Virus record (IMG/VR): IMGVR_UViG_3300021091_000001
Span: 1 to 64,000 of that record
Source of the DNA: a virus
Taxonomy: Duplodnaviria; Caudoviricetes
DNA: 64,000 bases
Reading direction: 5' to 3' (one strand)
Shown: positions 41,281-41,377 of the stretch, piece by piece
Layout: the number at the start of each line of letters is the position of its first letter
Numbering within the stretch: the first letter of the stretch is position 1
Program-made: the position numbers and the translations under genes
The notes under the pieces: model-generated
What the model saw: the letters and a program-made list of their open reading frames with translations, nothing else
The model's database searches: none
What the model was told of the DNA's origin: nothing

Positions 41281-41377
41281 CGCATCGGTAGGTTACATCT
41301 CATCAATGCATTCAGCACGCTTTTTGACGTAGGCAATGCATCTTGAGAACAAGCGGTTCGATTCTGCTTCGATGCGC
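41281..41377 (+). ncRNA. tRNA-like RNA without D-stem or anticodon arm
   Basis: Acceptor-like CGCATCG(G)/(T)CGATGCG, T-arm AGCGG-TTCGATT-CTGCT, internal helix TCTCA..ATGCATT/AATGCAT..TGAGA. Confidence 0.55.

Follow-up and report, generated by a model that had tools for sequence, protein, structure and literature searches.

A tRNA-like RNA of a lake phage lies at the genomic site of TLD-only tmRNAs and lacks their alanine identity

The phage genome to which the analysed stretch of DNA belongs (the window, 64,000 nt) is complete at 202,043 bp (202-kb), has terminal repeats and derives from a lake. The element under study, here called W1, opens an ORF-free island of about 750 nt that has a gene for a 335-aa protein on one side and a gene for a 79-aa protein on the other, all on the + strand. 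Searches of Pfam, PHROG, PDB and Atlas gave no lead for the 335-aa protein, and open reading frames antisense to W1 had no family matches. On the + strand of the island we found neither sigma-70 promoters nor intrinsic terminators, and there are none between W1 and the hairpin that precedes it. The features of the locus, together with a sister element (W2) located further downstream, are the following:

40217-41224, + strand: gene for the 335-aa protein, conserved in relatives
41233-41279, + strand: 16-bp hairpin just 5′ of W1, with a gap of 2 nt; 5′ leader, terminator or promoter element
41282-41288, + strand: 5′ strand of the W1 acceptor stem, GCAUCGG, with pairs G1-C72, C2-G71, A3-U70 and onward to G7.U66
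41289-41297, + strand: analogue of the D-loop without a stem, UAGGUUACA, nine unpaired nucleotides containing GG
41298-41348, + strand: long bulged helix with a closing UCUCA/UGAGA, then AUGCAUU/AAUGCAU and a small apex; MFE and centroid folds agree
41349-41351, + strand: 3-nt linker ACA, 5′ of the T-arm
41352-41368, + strand: T-arm AGCGG-UUCGAUU-CUGCU, with a 5-bp stem and G53-C61
41369-41375, + strand: 3′ strand of the acceptor stem, UCGAUGC, followed by the discriminator G41376 and the encoded CC at 41377-78
41379-41521, + strand: conserved RNA module, GAGUAY ... GGGAAAGUC, with a CUACC hairpin; no Rfam match
50418-50538, + strand: W2, GGAAGCG.../CGCUUCC-A-CCA, of the same layout as W1

W1 comprises 95 bases (41282-41376, + strand, to which CC adds 41377-78) and has the shape of the upper half of a tRNA. 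GCAUCGG at 41282-41288 pairs with UCGAUGC at 41369-41375 in a 7-bp acceptor stem that is stacked on the T-stem; because C41281 and G41376 can form an eighth pair, the acceptor can be counted as 7-8 bp. The T-loop, UUCGAUU, agrees with the consensus (UUCRANY) at all positions, all 12-13 stacked pairs are intact, and the GG of the linker is kept. The internal helix takes the place of an anticodon arm, of tmRNA helix H2 or of a long variable arm, and both sequence and fold lack a D-stem and an anticodon loop. The layout described in the original prediction, namely an acceptor stem, a TTCGATT T-loop, an unpaired D-region, an internal helix and no anticodon loop, is all found in the sequence, and W1 does begin right after a strong hairpin, the 16-bp one at 41233-41279. 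That prediction also held that no CCA is encoded, which is true of the final A but not of the two preceding bases: G73 is followed by CC and then by G, and only the A is missing.

Two further observations concern the immediate surroundings and the interior of W1. The hairpin at 41233-41279 gave only spurious miRNA matches in Rfam at E<=10 and has no BLAST match in relatives, and it is, together with W1, unique to this genome. Within the W1 helix, a frame of 12 codons is open from GCA to UGA (41308-41346). It is probably a chance occurrence, as its bases are paired and relatives keep no tag like it; tag reading frames in the larger relatives were dismissed on inspection, the peptides being not conserved and the region helical.

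A descriptor consisting of a UUCRANY loop, G53-C61, a perfect 5-bp T-stem and an adjoining perfect 7-bp acceptor stem matches eight sites in the 202,043-bp genome, namely six of the seven tRNAs found by ARAGORN, W1 and W2. Shuffled genomes (n = 20) contained no such site, and a loosened version of the descriptor gave no convincing extra sites in the whole genome. Since the descriptor selects tRNAs and W1/W2 only, and nothing in any of the 20 shuffles, the fold of W1 is not a product of chance; the MFE z-score of W1 (−1.85) is modest taken alone. The prediction that W1 and the element at 50418-50538 share one layout is borne out by fold and descriptor alike. The UCUCA/UGAGA helix that the two also share was rejected as evidence of kinship, as we estimate a chance expectation of about 10% for it.

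W1 is a real tRNA mimic and not a standard tRNA (RF00005) or tmRNA gene. ARAGORN and Rfam at its gathering thresholds report only the four true tRNAs in the window and leave W1 unmatched, a search of 40800-42000 (1.2 kb) with Rfam at E<=10 gave no tRNA, tmRNA or RNase P match, and the intron, mitochondrial and tmRNA modes of ARAGORN returned nothing credible for W1. There is no cloverleaf with a D-arm and an anticodon arm, in agreement with the expectation that these programs would find no canonical tRNA here. An intron-containing tRNA was likewise rejected, because relaxed ARAGORN gives only a junk model with a broken acceptor stem.

Using the conserved 335-aa gene, we collected 92 related loci (12 from IMG/VR and 80 from metagenomes; L numbers below). 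In about half of the related lineages, the spacer 3′ of the 335-aa gene contains a tRNA-like element without an anticodon arm. About half have no element at the site, and the element is therefore dispensable. Most of the locus elements start with GGGG(A/C)U and end with CUCC-A-CC, which gives them G3:U70 and A73; G73 is also present in some of the Ala-type relatives (L082-L086). Four elements match the tmRNA family RF00023 end to end, with the central ~300 model positions deleted, and all four have G3:U70 and A73:

L060 element: 75 nt, RF00023 58.4 bits, E 1e-20
L006 element: 70 nt, RF00023 47.3 bits
L018 element: 69 nt, RF00023 39.9 bits
L017 element: 119 nt, RF00023 32 bits

By this match, these four are TLD-only tmRNAs. 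A covariance model built from nine Ala-type elements (R1) recognises all five types at the locus, represented by L060, L006, L018, L017 and L012. The original prediction had placed W1 in an unannotated family of tRNA mimics. It was right in that W1 is a genuine mimic whose class recurs at the locus, and has to be amended in that many of the syntenic members are recognisable by RF00023 as TLD-only tmRNAs. The smallest element seen, at L044:3742-3784, has 43 nt: a 7-bp acceptor, an 11-nt linker and a T-arm, no internal helix, and then ACC|GAGUAC. Other structured RNAs were noted near these elements. Pistol self-cleaving ribozymes (RF02679) lie 5′ of the 335-aa gene in distant relatives (L011:1376-1442, 65.5 bits; L069:848-915, 62.6 bits). 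L060:2793-2916 resembles wcaG RNA (RF01761; 38.9 bits, slightly below threshold), and a second A-rich hairpin ends there 3 nt before the TLD. Similar hairpins lie 5′ of the TLDs in L006 and L012 and 5′ of W2 (50385-50414).

The conserved module at 41379-41521 has a P1 helix, CCUGGA/UCCAGG, that covaries, and its first base adjoins the CC end of a tRNA-like element in five lineages, that of W1 included. The N73-CC|GAGUA junction is also found in L012/L067/L083, L038/L039 and L044. In L082 and L086 the element ends in GCCA and no module follows, L040 has the GAGUAY module and no tRNA-like element, and in L001, L002, L006 and L060 the element is present without any downstream RNA. The modules of the island occur in shuffled order among relatives. 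Given this shuffling, the module that stands alone in L040 and the elements without downstream RNA, the tRNA-like RNA is an independent unit. The module is not part of W1 and probably sets its 3′ end. It could possibly be an element for 3′-end processing that cleaves itself in the manner of theta ribozymes, which are structured RNAs adjoining the 3′ ends of phage tRNAs (PMC10879173). A hand search for an HDV-like fold of the module gave no complement for P1, and that fold is not supported.

Further downstream, 41523-41770 has no BLAST match among the 92 related loci. Short RNA blocks at 41773-41825 and 41838-41940, one of them with CUUAAACGACACUGUGGUGUGCCCUA, are common to many relatives in differing order (L044, L056); in this respect the island resembles a row of cassettes in shuffled order. 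At 41958-41967, 50557-50566, 49485-49494 and other places, the motif TTCATACAAA recurs 10-20 nt 5′ of start codons, preceded by a run rich in T and in many cases with GGAG after it; a function as promoter or leader signal of the phage is possible.

In tmRNA, the D-loop of the TLD has no stem and must touch the T-loop for SmpB to bind; SmpB occupies the position of the anticodon/D-stem, and a long variable arm is imitated by helix H2 (PMC3968760). Conservation of G3:U70 throughout ssrA is reported (PMC3968760, PMC3985003). W1 shares with the TLD+H2 part of tmRNA (RF00023) the order of acceptor stem, reduced D-loop, H2-like helix and T-arm, and the same host enzymes (RNase P, TrmA/TruB and CCA enzyme) are expected to act on both. 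It differs from tmRNA in having no mRNA-like domain, tag ORF, pseudoknots or alanine identity, its D-loop is diverged, and its interior is a single helix of 51 nt. Even at E<=10, W1 does not match RF00023, the gathering threshold of which is 47 bits.

TLD-only tmRNAs are known from surveys in a single mycobacteriophage, DS6A, and a few organelles (PMC4131195, PMC11915505). The DS6A RNA is labelled ‘TLD only’ and was proposed to act by titration of SmpB (PMC4131195). We located it (tmRNA Website ID 11587) at JN698994.1:28478-28560, where it scores 43.2 bits against RF00023 and consists of an acceptor stem, a 14-nt stemless D-loop, one capped helix, a T-arm and A73. The DS6A TLD and W1 are both phage-encoded RNAs of 80-95 nt with a 7-bp acceptor, a GG-bearing stemless D-loop, a single helix and a T-arm, and both have no tag reading frame and an incompletely encoded CCA. 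DS6A retains G3:U70, A73, the GAC of the D-loop and the match to RF00023, whereas W1 has A3-U70 and G73, no GAC and no match. The position of W1 is orthologous to that of bona fide TLD-only genes of the DS6A type, in the same intergenic site. The kind of RNA that W1 represents, a phage derivative of a TLD-only tmRNA, is already known from DS6A.

With the TLDs at its own locus (the L060, L006, L018, L017 and L012 types) W1 shares genomic site, layout and T-loop, but they carry G3:U70, and whereas R1 recognises all five types and RF00023 the first four, neither model recognises W1. The R1 score of W1, 13.6 bits, is no higher than that of the hairpin beside it. Among tRNAs, the class II members (Ser, Leu) have, as does W1, a long helix just 5′ of the T-arm, but W1 is without their D-arm and anticodon arm. 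The tRNA-Ser of E. coli has G73 and A3-U70, the combination found in W1. The mitochondrial tmRNA of jakobids is an organellar tmRNA without a CDS. Such organellar RNAs are, like W1, reduced to little beyond the tRNA-like domain; unlike W1, they are cellular or organellar, are presumably charged with alanine and have a cognate SmpB. In plastids of Mallomonadaceae, the CDS-less tmRNA genes are about 65 bp (PMC11915505).

How W1 is related to the TLD elements was approached from the gene next to it. In a quick tree of the 335-aa protein, the window falls in a clade of 11 rows with 100% support, and an element is present at the site in 11/11. Three of these are of Ala type (L006, L018, L017), six have G3-C70 (the L001 type and L003) and two have A3-U70 (W1 and L013). 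The simplest reading is that an Ala-type TLD was ancestral at the locus and that its identity was later lost or replaced. W1 has lost alanine identity, with A3-U70 and G73 in place of G3:U70 and A73. TLDs of the GGGGCUA type have GGUUACA in the same register as W1 (positions 10-16), the linkers agreeing at seven of nine positions, and the tail G73-CC-GAGUA is common to W1 and L083. Global alignments of W1 with the family have z-scores of 2-4, those with the true tRNAs of the phage about 0; the signal comes from the ends, and the interiors are not significantly alike.

The acceptor sequence is wholly different among W1, L013 and the L001 type, and pairing is kept. When W1, L013 and the six L001-type copies (three non-Ala types) are aligned, eight of the 12 acceptor and T-stem pairs have changed on both sides. 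In this set 88.5% of the cells are paired, a value as high as this arose in 0/500 shuffles, and slid controls reach 27-51%. Covariation involving W1 is confined to this comparison across the three non-Ala types. The L001-type elements have one or two acceptor mismatches, and one of these, G6.A67, is kept in six diverged copies.

W1 itself is a sequence singleton. It has no BLAST match among the 92 related loci and no match in cultured phages; of the exact-pattern scans, one of IMG/VR was empty, and another of IMG/VR and one of GTDB species genomes gave chance matches in unrelated DNA. We rejected capture from a host tRNA, as no bacterial tRNA has the same T-arm together with the acceptor 3′ half, and the acceptor has no specific match to phage tRNAs or to the tRNAs of 185,579 bacterial species. 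Synteny, the position in the tree and the short GGUUACA motif make it most likely that W1 descends from, or replaced, the ancestral TLD-only tmRNA of the clade. Together they do not amount to a demonstration of homology between W1 and the TLDs.

For W2 the relation is more direct. R1 gives it 31.1 bits (E 3e-4) and gives its orthologue L093 36.9 bits, and L093 scores 24.8 bits against RF00023; judged by these scores, W2 is detectably related to the TLD family. W2, L093, L011 and L069 have A3-U70, yet their D-loop is tmRNA-like (AUUCAGG..CGAC), from which it follows that alanine identity was lost at least once more in these phages. Two of these W2 relatives, L011 and L069, occupy the W1 site in distant phages. 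Relaxed ARAGORN can also read W2 as a tRNA(ACA) that has a long variable arm and whose anticodon loop contains an insert of 33 nt, a weak alternative fold.

We think it probable that W1 is a functional TLD-like RNA. As it lies at the spot of a reduced tmRNA in related phages, its most likely role among those considered is that of a decoy for host proteins that handle tRNA or tmRNA. The gene content of the phage includes no SmpB, RF-1/ArfB-type factor, CCA-adding enzyme or Pth, and any partner of W1 would therefore be a host protein. For its expression, processing, binding partner and effect we infer the following course. W1 would be transcribed as part of the ~750-nt non-coding island (+ strand), host RNase P would cut the 5′ end at G41282, the 3′ end would be freed at the CC|GAGUA junction, and the host CCA-adding enzyme would complete the CCA. 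The RNA would then fold as the upper half of a tRNA that is not a substrate of AlaRS, and in its uncharged form it could titrate host SmpB, or another reader of the acceptor or elbow, so that trans-translation would be damped during infection. Taken as one explanation, a functional RNA of TLD+H2 architecture that descends from or replaced a TLD-only element and has a decoy role comes near to an even chance without quite reaching it. That W1 works specifically as a decoy of SmpB or of trans-translation is possible if somewhat doubtful.

Another role that could be imagined is that of a processing or punctuation handle, which recruits RNase P and 3′-end enzymes in order to separate the upstream mRNA from the island RNAs, much as happens in tRNA punctuation or with MALAT1 and mascRNA; the piece set free would itself have no function. 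Such a handle would fit the position of W1, with a coding gene on its 5′ side and 600 nt of structured RNA on its 3′ side, and the lack of a promoter between hairpin and W1. The CC end adjoins the GAGUAY module here as in L012/L067/L083, L038/L039 and L044, there is a precedent in the theta ribozymes that adjoin phage tRNA 3′ ends (PMC10879173), and a handle has no need of alanine identity. However, the elements of L001, L002, L006, L060 and L082 stand alone or end in CCA without a module, L040 has the module without a tRNA-like element, and most relatives keep G3:U70 and A73, which would be superfluous for a mere handle. We consider this role unlikely.

Alternatively, W1 could be a decoy or substrate for some other reader of the acceptor end, such as another aminoacyl-tRNA synthetase, one that does not read the anticodon, or a host defence toxin that cuts or modifies tRNA 3′ ends, and the rapid change of acceptor stems at the locus would then reflect an arms race. 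The acceptors of W1, L013 and the L001 type, different in sequence yet still paired, would fit this, as would the switches between Ala, G3-C70 and A3-U70 inside one clade and the long helix at the position of the class II variable arm (PMC3968760). Yet the W1 acceptor has no specific match in phage tRNAs or in the 185,579 bacterial species, and we regard this proposal as distinctly unlikely.

W1 could also be a decaying relic of a TLD-only tmRNA or tRNA gene that is drifting. Consistent with decay are the loss of G3:U70 and A73, the singleton sequence, the frequent gain and loss of elements at the locus and the acceptor mismatches of the L001-type relatives. Drift, however, would first break the very features that W1 has preserved, namely its 12-13 intact stacked pairs, the consensus T-loop and the GG linker, and the G6.A67 mismatch of the L001 type is itself kept across its diverged copies. 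We find a relic quite improbable.

A more far-reaching version of a functional W1 is that at this locus a TLD-only tmRNA has been adapted again and again to other acceptor identities; W1 would then carry some non-alanine amino acid, or none, and would be delivered by SmpB to stalled ribosomes. If true, this would amount to phage-directed reprogramming of ribosome rescue, but we regard it as a long shot. Finally, a true tRNA gene whose anticodon loop is interrupted by an intron-like insert, later cut out of the transcript, is hardly credible: UCUCA/UGAGA does lie where an anticodon stem would be and relaxed ARAGORN does read W2 with such an insert, but W1 has no D-arm, no loop containing U33 and no bulge-helix-bulge, its 41 nt are far below the size of a group I intron, and its own relaxed ARAGORN model has the broken acceptor stem.

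A TLD-like RNA that acts as a decoy is the reading we favor. What is new here, beyond the single mycobacteriophage case, is the prevalence of TLD-only elements, at one fixed locus, in a clade of uncultured jumbo phages of lake and marine origin. Also new is the repeated loss, within this clade, of an alanine identity described as invariant for ssrA; the tRNA-like fold is kept, and W1 is one singleton case. The locus series is natural material for the question of what a headless tmRNA does in infection, whether as an SmpB sponge, a modulator of ribosome rescue or something else, and of whether charging matters to it. The locus elements are also candidate small RNA inhibitors of trans-translation.
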